A stretch of DNA of 64,000 bases from Candidatus Curtissbacteria bacterium (GTDB lineage Bacteria > Patescibacteriota > Microgenomatia > Curtissbacterales > GWA2-41-24): positions 26,528 to 90,527 of the forward strand of contig JANLHP010000013.1 of assembly GCA_024654445.1 (NCBI GenBank), read 5' to 3'. Made by a program: the position numbers and the translations under genes. Below the pieces are notes generated by a model. The model did not search any database. It worked only from the letters and a program-made list of their open reading frames with translations, and was not told where the DNA came from. Shown here in pieces: positions 985 through 63,156 of this stretch. The stretch's first letter is position 1; the number at the start of each line of letters is the position of its first letter.

Positions 985-2097
985 ATGTCGTATCAAGTAA
1001 CAAAAGGTGCAAAAGGCAAAGTGGACGTAAAAGTCGATGTTCCAAAGGACGAATTTGACCAAACTTACGACCAAGTTCTTGCTGCTTTAGGACGAGATGC
1101 AAAAATAGCAGGATTTAGGCCTGGTAAGGCTCCTAAGGATGTTCTTGTTGGACATGTTGGTGCGAACAAAATTCTCAATGAAGCAGCCGGTTTTTTGATA
1201 AACAAACACCTGGGAGAAGTTTTCGAAAAGGAAAAGTTTTTCCCAATAGATTCGCCTAAAATTTCGATTTCGACCCTGGCCCCAGGTTCTGCTTTTTCTT
1301 TTACGGCCTCTTTTACTCAGAAACCCCAAATTAAAATTGGTGATTGGAGAAAGATAAAAATAGAGAAGGTTAAGCCCAAAGCGATTGCGAATACGGACGT
1401 AGACGAGTCGATTAAAAATATTTTTGAAGCATGGAAGAAACAAAAAGCTTCAAAGGAGCCAAAAGAGCCAGAGGAGTCAAGAAAGTTTATTTATGACGCG
1501 CGAGGCGAGAAAATATTTTTGAAAGATGAACCAAAGAAGTCAGAAAAAAGTGGAAGTCCTTCGACTAAAGCTCAGGACAAAATTGATGACAATTTCGCAA
1601 AAGCGATCGGAGCGAGAGATCTAGCGCACCTAAAAGAACTTGTCAGGAAAGATCTGGAGACTATTGTTACGGATCAAGTGGAAGCGAAAGTGGAGCAAGA
1701 GCTTTTTGAAAAGTTGGTCGAAATGACTGAAGTTGAGGTGCCGGAGATATTAGTTGACGACGAACTCAATAGGATTTTAGTGAGGCTTTCTTCGCAACTA
1801 GAACAGCAAGGAAGGGATTTAGATTCTTATCTTAAAGAAGAGAAAACGACGATTGATGAGCTTAAAACTAAATGGAGAGAACAAGCAGAAAAGAATGTTA
1901 AAACGACACTGGTAATGGATAAGATCGGGAGAGATGAGAAAGTTTCTGTCTCTCAAGAAGAAGTTGAGACTGCACTCAGAGGGGTTGGAGAAGCAAATTT
2001 GACCGACGAACAAAAAGCGGACATGGAAAGATACGTAACGCTTTCTATATTCCAAGCAAAGACTTTGGACTTGGTTAAAAAAGCAGTAGCTTTATAA
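985..2097 (+). CDS. tig: trigger factor (short form)
   Basis: N-terminal ribosome-binding signature GFRPGKAPKDVL, 370 aa. Sits next to proS. Confidence 0.85.
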   Translation: MSYQVTKGAKGKVDVKVDVPKDEFDQTYDQVLAALGRDAKIAGFRPGKAPKDVLVGHVGANKILNEAAGFLINKHLGEVFEKEKFFPIDSPKISISTLAPGSAFSFTASFTQKPQIKIGDWRKIKIEKVKPKAIANTDVDESIKNIFEAWKKQKASKEPKEPEESRKFIYDARGEKIFLKDEPKKSEKSGSPSTKAQDKIDDNFAKAIGARDLAHLKELVRKDLETIVTDQVEAKVEQELFEKLVEMTEVEVPEILVDDELNRILVRLSSQLEQQGRDLDSYLKEEKTTIDELKTKWREQAEKNVKTTLVMDKIGRDEKVSVSQEEVETALRGVGEANLTDEQKADMERYVTLSIFQAKTLDLVKKAVAL

Positions 2098-2139
2098 ATT
2101 CCCCCTAAAATTGATTCAAGGTGTATAATTAGCCTCCAA

Positions 2140-2994
2140 ATGAGAGAAAGGGTTGGGCCATTTTTAAGGAATCCAAGGAGAGTTGCGTTCAGCTCTGGGG
2201 TTCTTGCCGCAGCGTTTTTCTCAGGCTGTGTTGACTCAGACGCACCGGATAATAAGGTATCAACGCCTACATAAACCCCAACGGCAGGTCGACAATTCGA
2301 GAGAGCAACTTCTACTCCTGAGCCCACCGTGGTCACAAAAACCCCAACTGTTGTTTCACCGAAAGCATCACCTGAGCCCCAAGCAACTGCTTTGGCAGGA
2401 AACGATAGCGGAAGAGCATTGGAATTGGACGGTTTTGGCGACGATGCGGTCAAGTTTAACGGAGAGGGTTATGATTTCACTGCTTTGCCTGTTCGAGTAG
2501 AAGCAAGAATCAAACTCAACGAATCACTTACACCTGGATTGTCTAGGTTCGAAGGCGATACCGTGCTTGCAAAAGACGAAGCGATTGCTTTTTTTGCTGC
2601 CTTAGCTGCTTGTCCTGATGCAGGAATGGCTTTAGTTATTGATGACGGAGATCCAGTTTGCGGGCCAAAGGTCCAACGTGGCGTTTGGAAGGACATTGGT
2701 TTTGTTTACGACGGGGAAACTGTCACTTTTCTTCAAGGTGGAAAGGAAGTTGAAAAAAGAGATTGGCAGAGCCAGGTTCCCCTTGAGAATGGATTAGTAG
2801 TTATCGGAAGGAGTTCTGAAGGAATTACTCCTAAGATATGGAATGGGTTTATGGACTTTGTTTGGGCGGCAAACAAAGATGGGGTTATTTTTATGGTGGT
2901 TTTTGATAGAGATTTTTACGATTCGGTGAAGAATAGAGCTGGGACACCTGAAGGAGACGCAAAGATTGTTACAGTAACGGATAATTTACCTTGA
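2140..2994 (+). pseudogene. putative lipoprotein interrupted by an in-frame TAA (2272-2274); pseudogene, sequencing error or readthrough
   Basis: ATG at 2140 encodes a signal peptide with a lipobox (VAFSSGVLAAAFFSGC), then a TP-rich linker. A single TAA follows, and the same frame stays open through the 2329..2994 ORF (a T/P/S-rich linker continues). An extended -10 (TGTATAAT) lies at 2122-2129. Confidence 0.4.
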
Positions 2995-3058
2995 TAAAAA
3001 CAAGCTAAAGTTTTAGAATGAAGAGTCGATTCGATGGCAACTAGGTTGTCTGAGTTCC

Positions 3059-3137
3059 GTCATTGCGAGAAGCGGAGCGACGAAGCAATCTAATTAGAGT
3101 TTGAGATTGCCACGCTCATATATTCGCTCGCAATGAC
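3059..3137. repeat. structured palindromic intergenic element (copy R1): outer 11-bp inverted repeat GTCATTGCGAG/CTCGCAATGAC with a nested 7-bp inverted repeat GCAATCT/AGATTGC
   Basis: Perfect inverted repeats read directly from the sequence. Related copies at 50951-51097 (inside ychF), 39099-39167 and 12711-12896. Confidence 0.6.
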
Positions 3138-3178
3138 AAAGAATTATGCTTGAATTAGAGAGGATGTGCATTACTTGA

Positions 3179-4018
3179 TTGGCAAAAACCATTGTTACCC
3201 ATTTTTCTCCAGATTTTGACGGAATACCCGCGATTTGGTTATTGAAAAAATTTCATCCCGATTTTAAAAACGCCAACGTCGTCTTTTGCCCTGCAGGAGG
3301 GACTTACAATAACGAGTCGGTAGACTCTAATCCGGACATTGTTCATGTCGACACAGGCATGGGGAAGTTTGACCATCATCAAACGAATGATTTTACTTGT
3401 GGAGCTCAGCTTGTTTACGAGCATTTAGTCAAAGAAGGATATGTAGCAGAAGATGATGAGGCCTTGGCTCGAATGGTCAAGATTTTTACCGAGGTAGATC
3501 ATGCATGGGACGTTTACAAATGGCCAGAACCGGAAAGTGACAGGTGGGAATTTGGGTTGCCGAGCATTTTAGTTGGTTGGAAGGTCAATTTTCCGAAACA
3601 AGACGAAAAGTACGTTGAGTGGATGATGTCGCCGCTGGACGCGATTTACAGGATTATGCAGTTTAAAGTGAAGGCGGAAAAAGAATTAGAAGAGGGTAAG
3701 GAATTTAAGACGCGCTGGGGAGAAGGAATTGCGATGTATACGCCAAACGACGCGGTTTTGGATGCCGCTATTAAAAAAGGGTTCGCGCTTGTTGTCAGAA
3801 AAGACCCAAAAAGAGGTCATGTGCGAATAACTGGTTCCAATAATCACAAGGTCGACCTAACGCGCGCGTACGAAATGTTTCAGAAGAAAGATCCCAACGC
3901 AACGTGGTTTCTGCATGCCTCCAAAGTTTTACTTAGAAACGGGTCGACCAGAAATCCCACTATGAAACCGACTAACCTTGGGATAGATGAAGTAGTTGAG
4001 GTTCTGGAAAAAGCGTAA
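3179..4018 (+). CDS. DHH-family phosphoesterase (NrnA-like)
   Basis: Motifs HFSPDFDG and FDHHQTN (DHH), 279 aa. Confidence 0.7.
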   Translation: MAKTIVTHFSPDFDGIPAIWLLKKFHPDFKNANVVFCPAGGTYNNESVDSNPDIVHVDTGMGKFDHHQTNDFTCGAQLVYEHLVKEGYVAEDDEALARMVKIFTEVDHAWDVYKWPEPESDRWEFGLPSILVGWKVNFPKQDEKYVEWMMSPLDAIYRIMQFKVKAEKELEEGKEFKTRWGEGIAMYTPNDAVLDAAIKKGFALVVRKDPKRGHVRITGSNNHKVDLTRAYEMFQKKDPNATWFLHASKVLLRNGSTRNPTMKPTNLGIDEVVEVLEKA

Positions 4019-5090: not shown

Positions 5091-5492
5091 ATGTTGACTG
5101 TTTTGATTCGGACTGATACCCGATATCCTGTTAATAGAAAGGCTATAAGAAAGGCAGTTTTTGACACTTTTCTGAAGCATGGAATTGTCTCCAGTTGTGA
5201 GGTCTCTGTTTTTATTGTGGGGGAGCGAAAAATGAAAGAGCTTTCAGAGAAATATTATGGTGATAGCGATCTTCACGAAGTATTTTCGTTTCCGCTCGAG
5301 GACTCTGAATCCTCGTCAGAAAATAGGGGTTTTGTTAATTCGCCTGATGACAAATTGAGACTGGGTGATATAGTGTTATGCTGGCCGCAGGTTGTTATGC
5401 TTGCCGGCCAGGAAGGCATAATGGTGGACGAAGAAATTTCCTTCTTAACCGCTCACGCTGCCGAGCATTTACTTGGAATTCATCACGAGTAA
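5091..5492 (+). CDS. ybeY: endoribonuclease YbeY (rRNA maturation factor)
   Basis: Metal-binding motif HAAEHLLGIHHE (H-x3-H-x5-H) at the C-terminus. Confidence 0.85.
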   Translation: MLTVLIRTDTRYPVNRKAIRKAVFDTFLKHGIVSSCEVSVFIVGERKMKELSEKYYGDSDLHEVFSFPLEDSESSSENRGFVNSPDDKLRLGDIVLCWPQVVMLAGQEGIMVDEEISFLTAHAAEHLLGIHHE

Positions 5493-5507
5493 CAGGATCT
5501 ATTTAAC

Positions 5508-7112
5508 ATGACCGTTTTCTACCGTAAATACCGACCGCAGAAATTTTCTGACCTTGTCGGTCAAGAAAATATAAAAGAAATACTTTTGGCACAGTTGTCA
5601 TCTGGCAAGATAAGTCATGGATATTTATTTTCCGGGCCAAGAGGTACGGGGAAAACTTCAACTGCTAGAATTTTTGCAAAGGCCGTAAACTGTCAGGCCT
5701 ACCAGAAACCAGTTACCAGAAACCAGAAACTGAATTTTGGTGAGCCTTGCAATAAATGTATTTCGTGTAGGGCGATTGTTGATGGTTCGCACCTTGATCT
5801 GATTGAGATTGACGCCGCTTCCAACCGGGGCATCGAAGAAATACGAGACCTTCGGGAAAAAATTAAACTTTCGCCTGTTTTTTCCCAGTTTAAAGTGTAC
5901 ATAATAGACGAAGCGCACATGTTGACGACCGAAGCGTTCAATGCGCTTTTGAAAACTTTAGAGGAGCCTCCTGCACATGCAATTTTTATTCTCTGTACAA
6001 CAGCTGTTGAAAAGTTGCCTCAAACGATAATTTCCAGACTTTCCAGAATAAAGTTCGCAAGAGCAAACAATGAATCGATAATTCGTGCACTCGAAAAGAT
6101 TGCCAAAAGCGAAGGAATAAAAGTTGACCGTGATGCCCTTGTCGCAATTAGTAGAGTAGCAGATGGTTCTTTTAGAGATGCAATTTCAATTTTCGATCAG
6201 GCTGCTGCAAGTGGGCTAGGTGTTACCGCGGAGCAGATAACAAAATCGATCGCAGTTTCTGGCTGGAACCAGACTTCAGAAATTGTCGGTTTTCTGATGC
6301 ACAAAGATTTGAAGGCCGCGATCGTTTTGATTGATGATTTTGCCAAAGAGGGAGGGGATGCCCAGCTTTTAACTAGAGAAATTATTGCAGTTGTTGAAAA
6401 AATTCTCTTTTTAAAAATCGGAGTTGCCGATACTCTTTCAGACTTAGATTCTGCGCGCAGAGAAAAGATAAACTCACTTTCCGAAGACATAAGTTTTGCG
6501 GATGCTCAAAATCTGCTCAAGTTACTTTTAATTGCAGAAGGCGAAATGAAACTTTATCCGCTGCCAAAAATTTCTCTGTTTCTAGCTTTGTGTAAATATT
6601 GTGGTGATAACCTTCCTCAAGAGCAGCTTGCAGTCAAAAGAAATGAAAGAGTTGCTGAAGAGCCCAATTTGGAAGAGAAAAAATCAGGGAAAGAAAAAGT
6701 TGAAGTAACTGTTGATACTGGAGGGGATTCTGGCGAGATAAAATTAAGTGCAAAAGGTAAGGTGGGGTCACTATCTAACATAGAAGATAAGTGGAAGCAC
6801 TTTTTGGAGAAAGTGCGGCCCGCAAACGCTCATCTTGTTGCGCTTCTTCGTTCAACTAGACCGATGGAGTTTGATGGTGTTAATCTAGTACTAGAGGTTT
6901 TTTACAAATTTCACAAGGAGAAGTTAGAGGAACCCAAGATAGCAAAATTGCTTGAGGAAACGTTATCTGACGTGTACGGTCAAAAGATCAGTCTAAGAAC
7001 AGTGCTTGCACAAAAAAGGTCAAAGTTACCCACACCGGTTGAAAAAAGTGACGTTGTTGATGTTAGCAGCGAAGATCTCTCTAAACTTGCCCAAGAGATA
7101 TTTTCTAAATGA
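5508..7112 (+). CDS. dnaX: DNA polymerase III subunit gamma/tau
   Basis: Walker A GPRGTGKTS, AAA+ clamp-loader sensor motifs, zinc module NC..PCNKCISC. A tandem-repeat insertion lies at 5699-5731. Confidence 0.9.
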   Translation: MTVFYRKYRPQKFSDLVGQENIKEILLAQLSSGKISHGYLFSGPRGTGKTSTARIFAKAVNCQAYQKPVTRNQKLNFGEPCNKCISCRAIVDGSHLDLIEIDAASNRGIEEIRDLREKIKLSPVFSQFKVYIIDEAHMLTTEAFNALLKTLEEPPAHAIFILCTTAVEKLPQTIISRLSRIKFARANNESIIRALEKIAKSEGIKVDRDALVAISRVADGSFRDAISIFDQAAASGLGVTAEQITKSIAVSGWNQTSEIVGFLMHKDLKAAIVLIDDFAKEGGDAQLLTREIIAVVEKILFLKIGVADTLSDLDSARREKINSLSEDISFADAQNLLKLLLIAEGEMKLYPLPKISLFLALCKYCGDNLPQEQLAVKRNERVAEEPNLEEKKSGKEKVEVTVDTGGDSGEIKLSAKGKVGSLSNIEDKWKHFLEKVRPANAHLVALLRSTRPMEFDGVNLVLEVFYKFHKEKLEEPKIAKLLEETLSDVYGQKISLRTVLAQKRSKLPTPVEKSDVVDVSSEDLSKLAQEIFSK

Positions 7113-29893: not shown

Positions 29894-30936
29894 TGAGCGT
29901 CACACTGTCCAAGAAAGATAAATTGATGCTTATCAGCAATTTGGGAACGATGCTGACGGCTGGTATTCCGATCTTGGAAGCCGTAGAGTCACTTGCTTCA
30001 GACTCAAAAGGGAATCAGAAGAAAATCATCGAAACTCTACACGCAGATCTTAATCAGGGAAGAACCATCTCAAGTTCGTTTGCTAAATTTCCAAAAGCTT
30101 TTGACCCTGTTACTGTAAATTTAGTTAAGGCGGCAGAAGAGTCGGGCACGCTTGATTCTTCGTTAAAAGATTTAACGGTTGGTATCAAGAAGGACATGGA
30201 GTTTACGGAAAAGGTAAAGGGTGCGATAACTTATCCTGTTTTTGTAATTATTGTTTTTGTCGGCGTGCTTCTTTTGATACTAACTTTTGTTATCCCGCGT
30301 ATATCTAGTGTGTTTAGCAGGCTTAATGTTGACTTGCCTCTTCCTACAAGAATTCTTATTAATTTTTCAGATCTCCTTTTGGGTAAGACAATTCCAGTGA
30401 TTGCTGTGTTGGCTGTTCTTGTTGTAGGTATAGTCTTTTTGTACAAAACGAGGAAGAAAACGCTATTAAATGTTATTTTGTCCTTGCCAATTTTAAAGCG
30501 GCTTGCGAGAGATATTGATTTAACAAGGTTTTGCCGCAGCATGTCACTTCTTCTGACATCTGGTATTCCGATTACCGAAGCCCTTGATCTGTCGAGTAAT
30601 GTAGTAACAAAAAAGGAAGTTTCCAGAGCGATAGAAACTGCTAAAAAATTTGTCGCTGCCGGCAGAAAACTTTCGGAGAGCTTTAAGGAAAATTCAAAAG
30701 TTATTCCAAGCATTATGATCAGAATTACAGAAGCCGGAGAGAGGAGTGGGACACTTGAAAAGTCTATGCAGGACATTTCGGAATATTTTGAAGGTGAAGT
30801 TACGAGAAGACTCCGAACTCTGACGTCACTACTCGAACCGTTAATGCTAGTCTTTATTGGACTATTGGTCGGTGGCATGATGCTTGCAATTATCGCGCCA
30901 ATTTACGGGCTGATCGGTAATATTGGCGCAAGATGA
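29893..30936 (+). CDS. pilC: type IV pilus platform protein (GspF/PilC family)
   Basis: Two GspF-type repeats and three TM segments. ATGA overlap with pilB. Confidence 0.85.
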   Translation: MSVTLSKKDKLMLISNLGTMLTAGIPILEAVESLASDSKGNQKKIIETLHADLNQGRTISSSFAKFPKAFDPVTVNLVKAAEESGTLDSSLKDLTVGIKKDMEFTEKVKGAITYPVFVIIVFVGVLLLILTFVIPRISSVFSRLNVDLPLPTRILINFSDLLLGKTIPVIAVLAVLVVGIVFLYKTRKKTLLNVILSLPILKRLARDIDLTRFCRSMSLLLTSGIPITEALDLSSNVVTKKEVSRAIETAKKFVAAGRKLSESFKENSKVIPSIMIRITEAGERSGTLEKSMQDISEYFEGEVTRRLRTLTSLLEPLMLVFIGLLVGGMMLAIIAPIYGLIGNIGAR

Positions 30937-31424
30937 GCCTACTTTCTAAAAAAAAGAGAAAATTCGGCTTTACTCTCGTTGAGGTCATCATAGTTGGTGG
31001 ACTCTTTGCTCTTGTTGCTTCTTTTTCCGCAATTAACATCTTAAGAAGTCAAACGCACAGCACCTTGGTCTCGCAAGTTACAATTTTTGTTTCTGATAGT
31101 AGGTCACAGCAAGTGAGAGCAATGGCGGGGGATTCGCAAGGACAATCGACTTCAGGTGATTGGGGGATACACCTAGAGAATAACAGGTATGTCTTATTTC
31201 GCGGATCAACATATTCTGCGGGAGATGGTGGGAATTTTATCGTCAACCTAGGCTCTACTATGGCCATCAGTTGGACATTGCCAACGGCGGACATAGTTTT
31301 TGTCAAAAGGAGCGGAGAGGTAGTTTCATACACCGAAGGTGCCAACACCGTTACTTTCACCAATAGCGCAAGTGGCGAACATGCGCAACTGACAATTAAT
31401 CGCTACGGGAGTATTTCGAGATGA
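30933..31424 (+). CDS. pseudopilin (prepilin-type N-terminal cleavage/methylation domain)
   Basis: N-terminus KFGFTLVEVIIVGGLFALV. Confidence 0.7.
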   Translation: MSLLSKKKRKFGFTLVEVIIVGGLFALVASFSAINILRSQTHSTLVSQVTIFVSDSRSQQVRAMAGDSQGQSTSGDWGIHLENNRYVLFRGSTYSAGDGGNFIVNLGSTMAISWTLPTADIVFVKRSGEVVSYTEGANTVTFTNSASGEHAQLTINRYGSISR

Positions 31425-35048: not shown

Positions 35049-35588
35049 TTGACAAGCATTTGGTGTTTATTAAAAAATGAGAGAGTAGTACAAAAAATGA
35101 TCCTGCCTAAATACAGAAACGCACAAGGTTTCACACTCATTGAGCTTTTAGTCGTTATTGGTATTCTTGCTATTCTTCTCGCGATAGTCTTAGTCGCGAT
35201 TAACCCCGCCAGGCAATTTTCTCAGGCCAACAATACTCAGAGGAAGAGTGATGTAAACGCGATACTTAACGCGATTCACCAGTATGCTGTTGACAACAAT
35301 GGTAACACTTCTGCACTGGGTATTGATGGGACGGTGAGAACTATTACGTCAACTGTGGGAGCGACAAATGTTAATCTTTGTGAAGCTAATGAATTAGTAC
35401 CGACTTATATCGCGGATCTTCCGCTTGACCCACAAGATGGTACGGAGGATCCTGCTAGGTCTGTTTGTACCGATGTTGGAGCAACATACAATACAGGATA
35501 TACTGTAGTTGTGAGTGCGACCGACAATAGGGTAACTGTAGCTGCTCCGGGGGCAGAACTTTCCGAAATTATAACGGTTACCAGATAA
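35049..35588 (+). CDS. pilA: type IV major pilin
   Basis: Class III signal with G/F cleavage site: AQGFTLIELLVVIGILAILLAIVLVAINP. Confidence 0.8.
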   Translation: MTSIWCLLKNERVVQKMILPKYRNAQGFTLIELLVVIGILAILLAIVLVAINPARQFSQANNTQRKSDVNAILNAIHQYAVDNNGNTSALGIDGTVRTITSTVGATNVNLCEANELVPTYIADLPLDPQDGTEDPARSVCTDVGATYNTGYTVVVSATDNRVTVAAPGAELSEIITVTR

Positions 35589-47804: not shown

Positions 47805-48854
47805 ATGATATCGCGCCGGATTTTCATTATTATCACTATTGCCGTCGTCGGAGCCGCTGGAGCTCTCGTTATTATAAGGAGAGATGGGACGGAATTAGTT
47901 CGATCGATTTTGCCGGATGTTCCTGGAGCAGTTAATCCCACGCCAAGCCCCTTTCCTTTTCAGGAATTGACGATTCCGTATCTGAAAAGCAGAAAATATG
48001 ACAGTAATTTAGGAAGTCTGGAAAGGGTAAGTGAGAACGCAAACTATATTTCATATTTAACAAGTTATGAGTCTGATGGTCTAAGGATTAATGCTCAGTT
48101 AACGGAACCTAAGGGTCCAAGACCTGAGGGAGGTTGGCCAGCGGTTATCTTTATTCATGGCTACATTCCTCCAGGGCAGTATCAAACGCTCACGAATTAT
48201 TCATCTTACGTTGACTATCTTTCCAAAAACGGGCTTGCGGTTTTTAAGATAGATCTTAGGGGACACGCAAATTCGGAAGGAGAACCAGGTGGGGCCTATT
48301 ATTCTTCGGATTACGTAATTGATGCCCTGAACGCTTATTCTGCTTTGCAGAAAGCGCAGTTTGTTAATCCTGACAAAATTGGTTTGTGGGGACACAGTAT
48401 GGCGGGCAACGTGGTCTTTAGGAGTTTAGCCGCAAAACCGGAAATTCCGGCGGTCGTGATTTGGGCGGGTGCGGGATACACATATTCGGATATCCGGGAG
48501 TTCGGAATTGACGATGACAGTTACCGGCCTCCGCCAAGCGATACGGAGAGGCAAAGAAGAAGAAGGGAGCTATTTGATACTTACGGAGATTTTAACGCCG
48601 AGAGTTCTTTTTGGGAGCAGGTTGCACCGACCAATTATTTGGGGGAGATGAAAGGGGCTGTACAGCTTAACCACGCGACGAACGACAACGTTGTCAGTGT
48701 TCGATATAGCCGGAATCTGACAAATCTTCTTAAGGATGCCGGAGTTCGTCACGAATTGCACGAGTACGGTGGTGGTGGGCACAATTTTTCCGGTGCTTCA
48801 TTTAATGCTGCTATGCAGAATACAGTTACTTTTTTCCAAGAGAACCTTCGGTAA
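47805..48854 (+). CDS. membrane-anchored alpha/beta hydrolase, paralog B of 38000-39049
   Basis: Same architecture and clear sequence similarity to paralog A. Nucleophile elbow GHSMAGN. Confidence 0.75.
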   Translation: MISRRIFIIITIAVVGAAGALVIIRRDGTELVRSILPDVPGAVNPTPSPFPFQELTIPYLKSRKYDSNLGSLERVSENANYISYLTSYESDGLRINAQLTEPKGPRPEGGWPAVIFIHGYIPPGQYQTLTNYSSYVDYLSKNGLAVFKIDLRGHANSEGEPGGAYYSSDYVIDALNAYSALQKAQFVNPDKIGLWGHSMAGNVVFRSLAAKPEIPAVVIWAGAGYTYSDIREFGIDDDSYRPPPSDTERQRRRRELFDTYGDFNAESSFWEQVAPTNYLGEMKGAVQLNHATNDNVVSVRYSRNLTNLLKDAGVRHELHEYGGGGHNFSGASFNAAMQNTVTFFQENLR

Positions 48855-48993
48855 TCTCTTAATAATTTCTTACAAACCTCTAACCTCAATCTAAAAATTT
48901 TGATCTAGAATACGCACAATCGGTAATTGTGCTTTTGAATATTCTCACCTTGATTTTTTGGATCATCGGTCAGAGTAACTAAGCAAAAAGGAG

Positions 48994-49283
48994 GTGATAG
49001 ATAGTTGGTGGACATTAGTAATCATTATAGACATTACTTATGAACGATATTGGAAGGACGCTTATTATTTTTGGATTTTTAATCTCATAGGAATTTTGGT
49101 GAGTGTTTCAGGCAAAATCCCATTAATTGGCCGATTGCCTGGAGACATTATTATAAAAGGGAAGGTTTTACATTTTATTTTCCGTTAACAACCTCGCTAA
49201 TCCTCAGTATAGTTTGTCCCTCGTTCTTAGATTTTTTAATAGATAGATTACGTTCAGCATATGTTCGCAACACGCAGATATGA
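48994..49283 (+). pseudogene. DUF2905-like small membrane protein with an apparent frameshift at the A-run near 49160-49166
   Basis: Frame 0 gives ...GKIPLIGRLPGDIIIK then stops. The +2 frame continues with (E)GFTFYFPLTTSLILSIV..., matching the second conserved half of the family. Confidence 0.5.
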
Positions 49284-49780
49284 GTCGCGAATTTTTGGAA
49301 GTGATACGAGACGTAGAAGCACTTGCAAGTGAACCTCAAGGTTTTGGCTTTGAAGGGGAATGGAGTAGCCGTTTGCAGCCGGTTCTGGTGCAAAATCAGC
49401 CGGGTGAGAGGCTACACAGCCATAAAGAAAGGACAATGGCCATTCCTCGCAGGCCAACGCGCGGCCGGATTTATCATGCCGGTTCAGGCAACAGCGGCCA
49501 TTTTTGGAGAAAAAAAGTGGGAACTTTTTGCGATTGATACTGGATACCAACTCGTTGCAGTTCTTGCGATGGGTGTTGTTCTAGCTATCTTATGGCAGGT
49601 GAAGAGGGACATTGGTTTGCAAATGCTGATCCTAAAACACCGGGAAAAACAGGAGATCGAGCTTTCTTTATTGATGAAACAGGTGTGATCCGCGCGACAG
49701 AAGGCGGAGAAGCAACTCCTGGCAGTAAACCCCTCGAGAACTAAGTATCTTCTTTTTGTTAAACTATTTCTTATGAATTT

Positions 49781-50254
49781 ATGAACAAACAACTTAAGCA
49801 CGAGGTTACGCCTTTGGGAATGCTAAATAATGCAAAGGTTTGGTACGTTTTGTACAGACAGAACATTTATTTGGGGACCCATCACAAAATAATAGCTATA
49901 TACTGCTTGTTGATTAGCTTTGAAATGTTTCTCAAGTCTTACCTAATTTATTTAAATAAAATGGAGTATTCCTGCGATTCAAATTTAGAGAAGCTAGGAC
50001 ACAAATTTGGAAATATTGTTAAGGCTATTAAAAAAGAAAAAGATGCTAGATTATCACCTCGGATAGACAGTCTTATTAAGAAGTATGATCTTATGTCTAT
50101 AGATACAAATAATCTTAGATATCCAAGAAAAGGTGACGAATTTTTAATCCATGCGGGATATCTTAGCCCACATAATGAATTTGACGAGTTGTTAGATGCT
50201 ATTGGAGGAGAGGTTAGTGGAGGTATTGTTGATAAATTTTACGATGAAACTTAA
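49781..50254 (+). CDS. HEPN-domain protein (orphan, with no adjacent nucleotidyltransferase partner)
   Basis: Helix with FEMFLKSYL (cf. HEPN AxExxLKAxL) and the C-terminal motif NLRYPRKGDEF (HEPN-type SRYPD). 157 aa. Confidence 0.55.
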   Translation: MNKQLKHEVTPLGMLNNAKVWYVLYRQNIYLGTHHKIIAIYCLLISFEMFLKSYLIYLNKMEYSCDSNLEKLGHKFGNIVKAIKKEKDARLSPRIDSLIKKYDLMSIDTNNLRYPRKGDEFLIHAGYLSPHNEFDELLDAIGGEVSGGIVDKFYDET

Positions 50255-50287
50255 TCCATCATTTTTAATGAAGGGGAAAGTAAGAAT

Positions 50288-51496
50288 ATGAACCTATCTG
50301 TCGGTATTGTTGGACTACCCAACGTGGGGAAAAGCACGCTTTTTAATGCGCTTTTAAAGAAGCAGGTGGCTGACGCGCAGAATTATCCGTTTACGACGAT
50401 TGAACCAAACGTCGGCGTTGTTGAAGTTCCAGACCCACGTCTTTTCAAACTTGCAGACGTGGTAAAGAGCAGTGAGGGTTTAGCTCCGAATTTTAAGATA
50501 ATTCCAGCGGTTGTTAAGTTTGTAGATATTGCTGGTCTTGTTAAAGGTGCAGCAAGCGGCGAAGGATTAGGGAATCAATTTTTGTCGCATATTCGTGAGG
50601 TTGACGCGATTGTTTTTGTGTTGAGGGATTTTAGTGGAGAAGTTATTCGGGTGGGAAGTGAGAATCCCCAGGAAGATCTTGAGGTTCTAAAAACTGAACT
50701 TTTGATTAAGGATCTTGAGACTATTGATAAGCGAATTGATAGTTTAGGTAGGGAGTTGAAACCTCTTGGGCACCAAGATCCTAAGCATCAAGTTTTGGTG
50801 ACGATGCAAAAAGCGAAACAACTTGCTGAAGAGGGGAAGTGGCTGGGAGAAAATATGGACGAGGAAGAACTGGCGAAAATCCGTGAATTGCAGCTGCTTT
50901 CGACGAAGAAAACAATTGTTGTATTAAACACAGATGAGGGTAATCTCTCTGTTATTGCGAGTGAATCGAAGCAATCTCCAGATTCTGGATATACAGTGCC
51001 ATACGGTCCTCGTCCCTCGAGGACTCAGGACTCCGGGCCTAAAAGCCAGGATGACAAAAAAGAGATTGCCGCGGGCTCTTCGAGCCCTCGCAATGACAAT
51101 TATGTAAGGATAAGCGCGAAACTAGAACAGGAACTTTCGGACCTTGATGAGGAAGAGCAGGGAGAATACCTAAAAGAGCTTGGGATTGGCGAACCCGGAT
51201 TAAATCGTTTAATTAAAAATGCGTATGAAACTTTGGGGCTTATTACTTTTTTTACTGCCGGGCCAAAAGAAGTGCATGCGTGGACGACAAATAAAGGCGT
51301 ACTTGCACCGCAAGCTGCAGGAGTAATTCATACGGATTTTGAAAAAGGATTTATTGCTGCAGAAGTTATAGATTGGGAAACTTTAGTTGATGTGGGTGGA
51401 TGGCAGGCGGCAAAAGGGAAGGGACAAGTTAAGACTATCGGAAAGACAGAAGAAGTAAAGGATGGAATGGTTGTGGAGTTCAGGTTCAGTAACTAA
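50288..51496 (+). CDS. ychF: ribosome-binding ATPase YchF (Obg-family GTPase) carrying a 49-aa internal insertion
   Basis: G1 [17 protein letters not shown] domain at the C-terminus. 402 aa, versus about 363 for canonical YchF. Confidence 0.9.
50951..51097. repeat. composite structured repeat inserted in frame (147 bp) within ychF: R1-type outer/inner inverted repeats enclosing an R3-type module
   Basis: GTTATTGCGAG...GCAATCT...[CAGTGCCATACGGTCCTCGTCCCTCGAGGAC...]...AGATTGC...CTCGCAATGAC. Compare copy R1 at 3059-3137 and copy R3 at 39099-39167. Confidence 0.6.
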
Positions 51497-51876
51497 TATG
51501 CAATATTGCCGCTGTTGAATACACGGAGAGCTTTACCGTCTCGATTTTGGAAACGGGTAACGTAGGAGCCGTCTTCTTGGCGTTGGTAAGCAAACGAAGT
51601 TACATTGAGAAAAGGTCTTAATTCCCCTGTGCGAGAATTTTTGCCGGAAACTGTAAGCCTGATAGTACCTGTCTCTTCTTGAGAAGGTGGTTTGGAAACT
51701 TCGAAAGTGTAGAGTCCTTTGCCTGTAAAAAGATACCTTCCTTCCAACATTTTTCCTTGCCATGCGGGTAAGAGTCGTTGGAGTTCTGCCGGGTCGAACT
51801 CGCTAAGGTCCATCGTGGTAGATTTTTTATCCTCTGTGGTGGTAGCGCCCTTTATTTCTGCTTGTTCCGTTGTCAT
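51493..51876 (-). CDS. hypothetical protein
   Basis: 127-aa ORF with no recognisable motif. Confidence 0.4.
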   Translation of the reverse strand: MTTEQAEIKGATTTEDKKSTTMDLSEFDPAELQRLLPAWQGKMLEGRYLFTGKGLYTFEVSKPPSQEETGTIRLTVSGKNSRTGELRPFLNVTSFAYQRQEDGSYVTRFQNRDGKALRVFNSGNIAY

Positions 51877-63072: not shown

Positions 63073-63156
63073 TGCCGAGAGAGGGGGTCGAACCCTCACG
63101 ATCTTGCGATCATAGGTTTTTGAGACCTACGCGTCTGCCGGTTCCGCCATCTCGGC
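63073..63156 (-). tRNA. tRNA-Leu (anticodon CAA), long variable arm
   Basis: Reverse complement reads GCCGAGA-TG-GCGGAACCGGCAGACGC-GTAGGT-CTCAAAA-ACCTAT-(variable arm GATCGCAAGATCGTGA)-GGGTTCGACCCCC-TCTCGGC-A. 7-bp acceptor stem, anticodon-loop positions 34-36 = CAA. A hairpin terminator lies downstream at 63027-63048. Confidence 0.8.

Follow-up and report, generated by a model that had tools for sequence, protein, structure and literature searches.

Probable decay of neighbouring genes beside an intact, divergent HEPN-T-like gene upstream of ychF in a Candidatus Curtissbacteria genome

Proteins of the HEPN-T type (PF05168, for which 1wwp is a listed structure) include stand-alone versions (PMC3710099). 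In the AF0298-like HEPN-T variants (Anantharaman et al. 2013), the His of the Rx4-6H motif is lost and a D stands in its place, with the basic residue kept; these variants have an acidic residue on helix 2 and, in the insert that separates helices 2 and 3, an alternative conserved His (PMC3710099). HepT-MntA of Shewanella (SO_3166/SO_3165; 5yep, 6m6u and 7bxo) belongs to the same superfamily. Here we describe a locus in a 64,000-nucleotide stretch (the window) of the 112-kb contig JANLHP010000013.1, part of a Candidatus Curtissbacteria metagenome-assembled genome (MAG), in which an intact gene for a 157-residue protein lies between a segment rich in guanine and cytosine (GC) and the gene ychF. 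We consider it probable that this locus joins a patchwork of decayed coding DNA (49040-49780) to an intact, stand-alone and divergent HEPN-T protein (49781-50254), all on the forward strand. At the level of sequence comparison, the analysis establishes the identities of the fragments, their frameshifts, the synteny of the locus and, by transitive homology, the membership of the protein in a HEPN family.

The gene at 49781-50254 (NCBI NUV69_01505) is annotated only as a 'hypothetical protein'. A first-pass annotation of the window had described its product as HEPN-like, which holds through the relatives of the protein (PF05168 and hhalign) and fails for a direct profile match. Five relatives were found in a word-indexed protein database, and an exhaustive profile search recovered 58 (E ≤ 1e-3) among 1.84 billion representatives of clusters at 50% identity. 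When 50 relatives were scanned singly, 19 matched PF05168, whereas any other family was matched by at most two. The relatives P0075 (24.7 bits) and P0059 (23.5 bits) both exceeded the PF05168 gathering score of 22 bits with collinear alignments. P0059 matched the family profile with an E value of 1.8e-12, and hhalign aligned it to the close family (A1) with a probability of 98.4% and an E value of 5.7e-15, in an alignment spanning three motifs. This transitive evidence supports placing the 157-residue protein in the HEPN superfamily (PF05168 / HEPN-T type) as a divergent member.

The residues conserved within the family are consistent with this placement. The alignment of the 58 relatives shows no variation at E48, K52 and H74 and very little at L51 and Y114, and position 113 holds either R or K; the family consensus motifs are LExYLKAYL, LGHNF and LRYP. 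Helix 2 of the family bears the Glu-x3-Lys pair, the invariant His falls in the segment leading from there to helix 3, and a basic-Tyr-Pro sequence takes the place that Rx4-6H has in other HEPN proteins. The FEMFLKSYL helix (E48, L51, K52) and the RYP motif (R113, Y114, P115), which had been singled out in the first-pass annotation, correspond to these conserved residues. An AlphaFold (AF2) model made from the deeper alignment was all-alpha, with a predicted local distance difference test score (pLDDT) of 94.2 and a predicted template modelling score (pTM) of 0.90. Like the AF0298-like HEPN-T variants, the protein has a predicted all-alpha domain of ~120-150 residues, an acidic residue on helix 2 (E48 in LExYLK), R/K113 and an alternative His, H74. 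The E48/H74/R113 pattern fits the variant class of PMC3710099, and we conclude that the 157-residue protein is probably a divergent protein of HEPN-T type. Unlike PF05168 HEPN-T proteins in general, it and most of its relatives score below the Pfam threshold and have no Rx4-6H, and the family is small (58 clusters). It also differs from HepT-MntA, despite the shared superfamily and the HepT chains among its best structural matches: neither this gene nor its relatives, in the contexts examined, have an adjacent minimal nucleotidyltransferase (MNT) gene, and the RX4HXY motif is absent.

Several results weigh against the HEPN assignment. The 157-residue protein itself had no HEPN match in Pfam (PF05168, even at E ≤ 1), NCBIfam or PADLOC, and sequence searches of the Protein Data Bank (PDB) returned no HEPN chain, whether the query was the A1 profile, the A2 profile or P0075. 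The top PDB matches of the model in Foldseek were HEPN proteins (HepT 6m6u_H, 7bxo_G and 5yep_C; the 'HEPN domain protein' 4nqf_B; and 1wwp_A), with non-significant E values of 0.36-4.7 and template modelling (TM) scores of 0.33-0.51, and a model from a shallower alignment behaved alike, so that structure alone would not carry the HEPN claim. The canonical Rx4-6H is absent as well: the protein reads R113-YPRKG-D119, and its conserved His lies only upstream (H74), which makes RNase activity speculative. By analogy with the AF0298-like variants, we infer that the protein would bind RNA, possibly cleaving it through the alternative His and basic-residue site, and that it would probably act as a dimer. 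Some distant members of the family are longer. P0045, P0047 and P0076 share a C-terminal extension of ~80 residues (A2 columns ~400-480) with a zinc ribbon-like C-x2-C ... C-x2-C pattern, and P0005 has an N-terminal extension of ~100 residues.

The ychF gene (50288-51496, forward strand; MMR_HSR1 and YchF-GTPase_C in Pfam) begins 33 bp downstream of the HEPN-like gene. In L089 only 4 bp separate ychF from a homologue of the HEPN-like gene upstream of it, and the YchF encoded there is 44% identical to that of the window and collinear with it; in the Daviesbacteria relative L081 a homologue lies two genes upstream of ychF-rpsF-ssb. The nearest members of the family are found in Microgenomates (Curtissbacteria and Daviesbacteria), with a conserved site directly upstream of ychF. 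The family was not present at other ychF loci from 80 genomes, which indicates that the pairing is confined to a small clade. To our knowledge, a HEPN-T gene in this position has not been described.

The HEPN-like gene is presumably co-transcribed with ychF. A stand-alone HEPN protein that lacks Rx4-6H and is kept beside the gene for a universal translation-associated ATPase in several genomes offers a testable hint of function. We think it quite unlikely that the protein serves as a dedicated YchF partner of the Microgenomates lineage, co-transcribed with it and binding or cleaving RNA on the ribosome or tRNA under stress. If true, this would give a stand-alone HEPN with a non-canonical His/basic-residue site a housekeeping role linked to translation.

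The second part of the locus lies immediately upstream. Along the forward strand, an alpha/beta hydrolase gene (47805-48854) is followed by the GC-rich segment, the 157-residue protein gene, ychF, rpsF and ssb. About 91% of the window is coding in long open reading frames (ORFs), and its widest gap between ORFs of at least 70 residues is 48855-49322. The first-pass annotation had seen here a GC-rich, ORF-poor island at 49190-49780, flanked by a frameshifted DUF2905 gene and ychF, with a GC content near 50% at 49300-49520, interruptions in all three forward frames and a terminal stop-free stretch of 70 codons. The flanks are as it described them. GC content is 52.0% at 49300-49520 against 41.4% for the window, a value reached by 0.56% of 221-bp stretches, and 48.9% over 49281-49744, a value reached by 1.1% of 464-bp stretches; stops do interrupt all three forward frames across 49190-49780. 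The GC-rich stretch is thus real, but the first part of the proposed island (49190-49283) belongs to the DUF2905 gene, as its 3' third, and the last stop-free stretch exists with a length of 68 codons (49538-49741; C-terminus ...GSKPLEN, with the stop ending at 49744). The description 'ORF-poor' is apt only in relative terms, since NCBI annotates a coding sequence (CDS) of 94 residues, a 'DUF1761 domain-containing protein' (P0007), inside the segment of the source MAG.

The first piece of the patchwork is a DUF2905 pseudogene (49040-49283, forward strand; PF11146) with two 1-nt frameshifts. Its reading begins in frame 2 at ATG 49040 as MNDIGRTLIIFGFLIS and meets an in-frame stop after codon 16; it continues in frame 1 at 49084-49164 (..LIGILVSVSGKIPLIGRLPGDIIIKGK) and ends in frame 0 at 49164-49283 (GFTFYFPLTTSLILSIV...NTQI, then the stop TGA at 49281-49283). 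No uninterrupted frame holds the domain, whose recovery requires stitching the three frames. Against PF11146, the single ORF 48994-49188 scored 25.6 bits over profile positions 8-45 of 64, whereas the three stitched pieces scored 61.4 bits (E 9.9e-17) over positions 1-57 of 64.

Further downstream, 49464-49595 (forward strand, frame 0) holds the last 43 codons of a gene for a DUF1761 membrane protein (PF08570), identified with a family hidden Markov model (HMM). The 5' two thirds of the gene (~97 codons) and its native stop are gone. The scrap matched PF08570 with 35.3 bits (cut-off 31) at profile positions 82-122 of 123 only, and an HMM of 19 full-length, 140-residue relatives gave 68 bits at positions 98-140 only, with nothing else in any frame. 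It is 72-79% identical to the 140-residue relatives (56-79% across all database matches listed). At the DNA level it is 75% identical to the L083 gene, and this identity starts abruptly at 49467 with 17 identical bases. A full-length DUF1761 domain was not found in one open frame, and no upstream remnant was detectable in any frame. L083 has its intact DUF1761 gene close to rpsF-ssb-rpsR, which makes a DUF1761 gene in the present neighbourhood plausible. Compared with DUF1761 (PF08570) proteins, the scrap keeps the C-terminal 43 residues but neither start nor stop, and it runs into other scraps that are out of frame with it.

The third identifiable piece (49601-49744, forward strand, frame 2) comes from a type IV pilin-like gene of the prepilin N-methyl family, of which it preserves the C-terminal ~48 codons and the native stop. 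It is 55% identical over 44 residues to P0027, a protein of 152 residues with the PF07963 N_methyl motif, and an HMM of 120 members, mostly named Planctomycetota, matched it with 36-40 bits at positions 106-150 of 152 only. Compared with type IV pilins, the scrap keeps the C-terminal motif W-x-A-x-A-x-P-x2-PGKTGDR-x-FF-[IV]-DE-[ST]-GVIR and the native stop and has neither the N-terminal motif nor the helix. Upstream of it, no frame matched HMM positions 1-105, which hold the prepilin cleavage/methylation motif and the hydrophobic helix. Because these parts are absent, the scrap cannot be made or assembled as a pilin.

The silent pilS cassettes of Neisseria are 5'-truncated pilin copies. The pilin scrap superficially resembles them, but a related expressed pilin was not found in the window. 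Weaker still than the reading of a YchF partner is one in which the head-to-tail 3' gene scraps would be retained, either to store silent pilin-type cassettes or because they form a new structured RNA. The window has two pilin-like genes of its own, of which the one at 30933-31424 is not the source of a copy here, and the one at 35049-35588 is unlike the scrap too. Both give weak matches to the Planctomycetota-type pilin HMM (21 and 27 bits) and lie in an apparent larger block of same-strand genes at ~25-35 kb.

Between the DUF2905 and DUF1761 remnants lies a 180-bp piece (49284-49463, forward strand), where GC content in the segment peaks at 52%. Frame 2 of the piece is open from ATG 49280 (MSREFLEVIRDVEALASEPQGFGFEGEWSSRLQPVLVQNQPGE...), with a coding-like periodicity: GC by codon position in this frame is 0.64/0.46/0.44, the same ordering as in the genes of the window (0.52/0.38/0.38). 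A protein database search with its first 43 codons found no homologue, and a tblastn search of plasmids with its peptide gave nothing meaningful. The piece had no Pfam match, no Rfam match and no paralogue in the window. Judging from its periodicity, it is probably the remnant of some other gene.

We tried two more specific identities for this piece. A decayed 5' part of the DUF1761 gene gave z ≤ 2 in the three frames by local alignment (19 relatives, 500 shuffles) and was rejected as unproven; the DUF1761 family HMM and a blastn comparison with L083 found nothing upstream of 49464. The other candidate was the middle of a pilin gene into which the DUF1761 scrap had been inserted (129 bp, which keeps frame 2), and it found no support, as stitched constructs scored 38-40 bits against the pilin HMM, with no gain. 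Read across the shift from frame 2 to frame 0, 49358-49440 gives EWSSRLQPVLVQNQPGERGYTAIKKG, a faint echo of the pilin C-terminal motif (HWFANADPKTPGKTGDRAFFIDETG). This reading scored only 0.1 bit against the pilin HMM and may be an older, more decayed pilin copy or a product of chance.

The codon positions also bear on the GC content of the segment. Each scrap in its own frame has more GC at first codon positions (GC1) than at second positions (GC2), and at least as much at second as at third positions (GC3). GC3 of the scraps is 0.29-0.44, within the range of the window itself (150-nt chunks: mean 0.38, sd 0.07). In the DUF1761 and pilin scraps GC1 is 0.62-0.63 and GC3 is 0.35 and 0.29, respectively. 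On this evidence the high GC is a legacy of peptides rich in Gly, Ala, Pro, Glu and Arg, carried in codon positions 1 and 2. An excess confined to the positions that determine amino acids, with native synonymous positions, makes a recent arrival from a GC-rich donor less likely, and an excess in codon positions 1 and 2 argues against the GC richness marking a structured RNA. A foreign origin of the GC-rich DNA was accordingly rejected: the gene of the nearest pilin relative is 70% GC (its locus 75%), whereas GC3 of the scrap is 0.29.

The HEPN-like gene lies at the other extreme of composition. Its GC content is 32.7% against the 41.4% of the window, within the lowest 0.3% of 474-bp stretches, so that a top-1% GC-rich stretch directly adjoins a bottom-0.3% GC-poor gene. 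The L081 homologue (6001-6471) is likewise 27.6% GC in a Daviesbacteria contig of 37.7%.

Other types of signal were scarce. At gathering level, Rfam found only a tRNA (63073-63156) in the whole window, and at E ≤ 10 over 48800-50400 it gave three chance-level matches, all within the HEPN-like gene and none in the segment. Promoter and terminator scans returned sites no commoner than in shuffled sequence. Direct or inverted repeats, which would mark a mobile element or target-site duplication, were sought on either side of the scraps, and only short ones at chance level turned up.

All pieces lie on the forward strand, two of them are 3' gene ends, and their boundaries are sharp. Together with the lack of internal stops in the scraps, this fits a small number of recent deletions. 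In the scenario we favour, 49040-49780 would be protein-coding DNA that decayed recently within a streamlined Curtissbacteria genome. Two single-base deletions would have killed the DUF2905 gene, and further deletions would have joined three scraps head to tail at sharp breakpoints: one from another gene, the 3' end of the DUF1761 gene and the 3' end of the pilin-like gene. The deletions would have been few and recent, each running from somewhere upstream into a gene, across an ancestral row of DUF2905, X, DUF1761 and pilin; their order can only be inferred. The segment itself is presumably functionless, save for possible read-through transcription toward the downstream genes. The Daviesbacteria relative L081 has other genes in the matching space ahead of its HEPN-like gene, namely a DUF5666-like gene and a hicB-like/hicA pair, none of which matches the segment. 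From these sequences, the site upstream of ychF appears to be variable.

Some observations count on the other side of this scenario. The absence of internal stops from the scraps fits recent decay, but is also compatible with residual selection on the ORF of 94-121 residues. The 180-bp piece matched no known family, and its forward strand folds as RNA somewhat better than shuffled sequence does (-63.4 kcal/mol, z -2.6; 0 of 200 shuffles fold as well), a weak signal. The 22-mer across the junction was absent from the metagenome contigs of the Joint Genome Institute (JGI), so that the breakpoints have no independent copy there, and the closest YchF among GTDB species genomes is just 50% identical. 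The A1 family was also absent from the JGI metagenome contigs.

That the breakage arose in assembly or consensus calling, through a chimeric join or indel errors in the MAG, with the genes intact in the real genome, seems unlikely. Both DUF2905 frameshifts are of the same sign and adjoin homopolymer runs (T5 at ~49075; A4/G3/T4 at ~49155-49168), and neither exact-protein look-ups of the HEPN-like protein and YchF nor the JGI 22-mer search found an independent assembly of the locus. Yet the window has 590 homopolymer runs of at least 5 bases and is otherwise unbroken, with no comparable damage elsewhere. We therefore take the DUF2905 frameshifts as real rather than as part of a general sequencing-error pattern; as judged from the assembled MAG sequence alone, this argues for real mutations. 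The flanks are syntenic with those of relatives, both upstream (DUF2905 and the hydrolase) and downstream (HEPN-like-ychF-rpsF-ssb), and an assembler chimera would not usually leave two scraps of 130-150 bp within a region whose flanks are collinear. The GC3 of the scraps is moreover native, unlike the ~70% GC of the gene of the nearest pilin relative.

The ORF of 94-121 residues (49323/49404-49688), which contains the C-terminal DUF1761 helix, might instead encode a functional, newly shaped small membrane protein. It is, after all, the annotated CDS (P0007), and its DUF1761 part is free of stops and as close to intact relatives as the 72-79% identity given above. We nevertheless hold this to be highly unlikely: the ORF covers only one third of the domain and continues beyond the native C-terminus, where it reads the pilin scrap out of frame; no significant similarity was seen for its upstream half, and no identical or similarly truncated form was among the database matches.

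The first-pass annotation had proposed a decayed toxin-antitoxin or defence islet. In its most specific form this would be an MNT-HEPN pair, in which the segment is what remains of the antitoxin, a minimal nucleotidyltransferase, and the HEPN toxin has outlived it. In its favour, the protein encoded downstream is HEPN-like, and the upstream DNA is indeed decayed coding sequence, 180 bp of it without a match. Toxin-antitoxin genes also occur near family members in two contexts, namely mazE/pemK (873-1453) and a hicB-like/hicA pair (5313-5871) in L081, and parE with a small upstream gene (1035-1522) in L092, so that an accessory or conflict-related origin is possible. The pieces that can be identified, however, are DUF2905, DUF1761 and pilin-like rather than toxin-antitoxin or defence genes. 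It had been noted correctly that a nucleotidyltransferase is lacking upstream; the suggested check for NTP_transf_2 or DUF86 gave no signal in segment ORFs on either strand, NTP_transf_2 going undetected in any segment ORF even at E ≤ 1. PADLOC gave only scattered single matches across 50 family members, none common to more than two, and no match for the proteins of the window.

The family contexts point the same way. None of the six (L081, L082, L089, L090, L091 and L092) had an adjacent MNT-domain gene on record or in our scans, which did not extend to a cut 419-residue neighbour in L091 or to those neighbours in L092 that lack annotation. The HEPN-like gene lies next to or near ychF in three genomes, a position that suits a stand-alone gene passed on by descent better than the remainder of a broken MNT-HEPN pair. 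HEPN-T proteins that stand alone are on record (PMC3710099), and selection would act against an active toxin left without its partner. The wrecked MNT-HEPN pair is thus extremely improbable, and the 157-residue protein would never have had a nucleotidyltransferase partner or would have lost it long ago.

A structured noncoding RNA in the GC-rich core (~49284-49463), another proposal of the first-pass annotation, draws on the forward-strand fold (against z -0.6 on the reverse strand) and on the missing protein homologue of the 180-bp piece, and we give it next to no credence, since no Rfam family matched the segment at E ≤ 10, the piece has coding-type three-base GC periodicity in frame 2 with 3 of 6 frames open, and gene fragments lie on both sides of it.

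With decay of coding DNA next to an intact HEPN-T-like gene as the preferred reading, the 'hypothetical protein' becomes part of a branch of HEPN-T, and the puzzling gap of high GC content resolves into three identifiable pseudogene fragments beside the 180-bp piece. The branch is small, was previously unassigned and is mostly missed by current Pfam, NCBIfam and PADLOC models. For annotators, the 94-residue 'DUF1761 domain-containing protein' of NCBI would be a gene scrap. The locus overturns no current knowledge, but suggests that a streamlined genome of the candidate phyla radiation (CPR) can carry a local patch of recent gene decay.

Some features of neighbouring genes lie outside this argument. 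The YchF of the window has 402 residues and, relative to its L089 orthologue, contains a low-complexity insertion of ~40 residues rich in Ser, Pro, Asp and Lys (codons ~222-268); at the insertion (50950-51100), GC content rises to a local maximum of 52%. Between ychF and rpsF, a 127-residue ORF on the reverse strand (51493-51876) overlaps the ychF stop by 4 nt and has no Pfam match; at the corresponding position L081 has a Fic-domain gene. In L089, the HEPN-like homologue is directly preceded by a gene (1376-3292) for a 638-residue protein with a weak match to HATPase_c_3 (GHKL ATPase) of 18.7 bits, below the cut-off.

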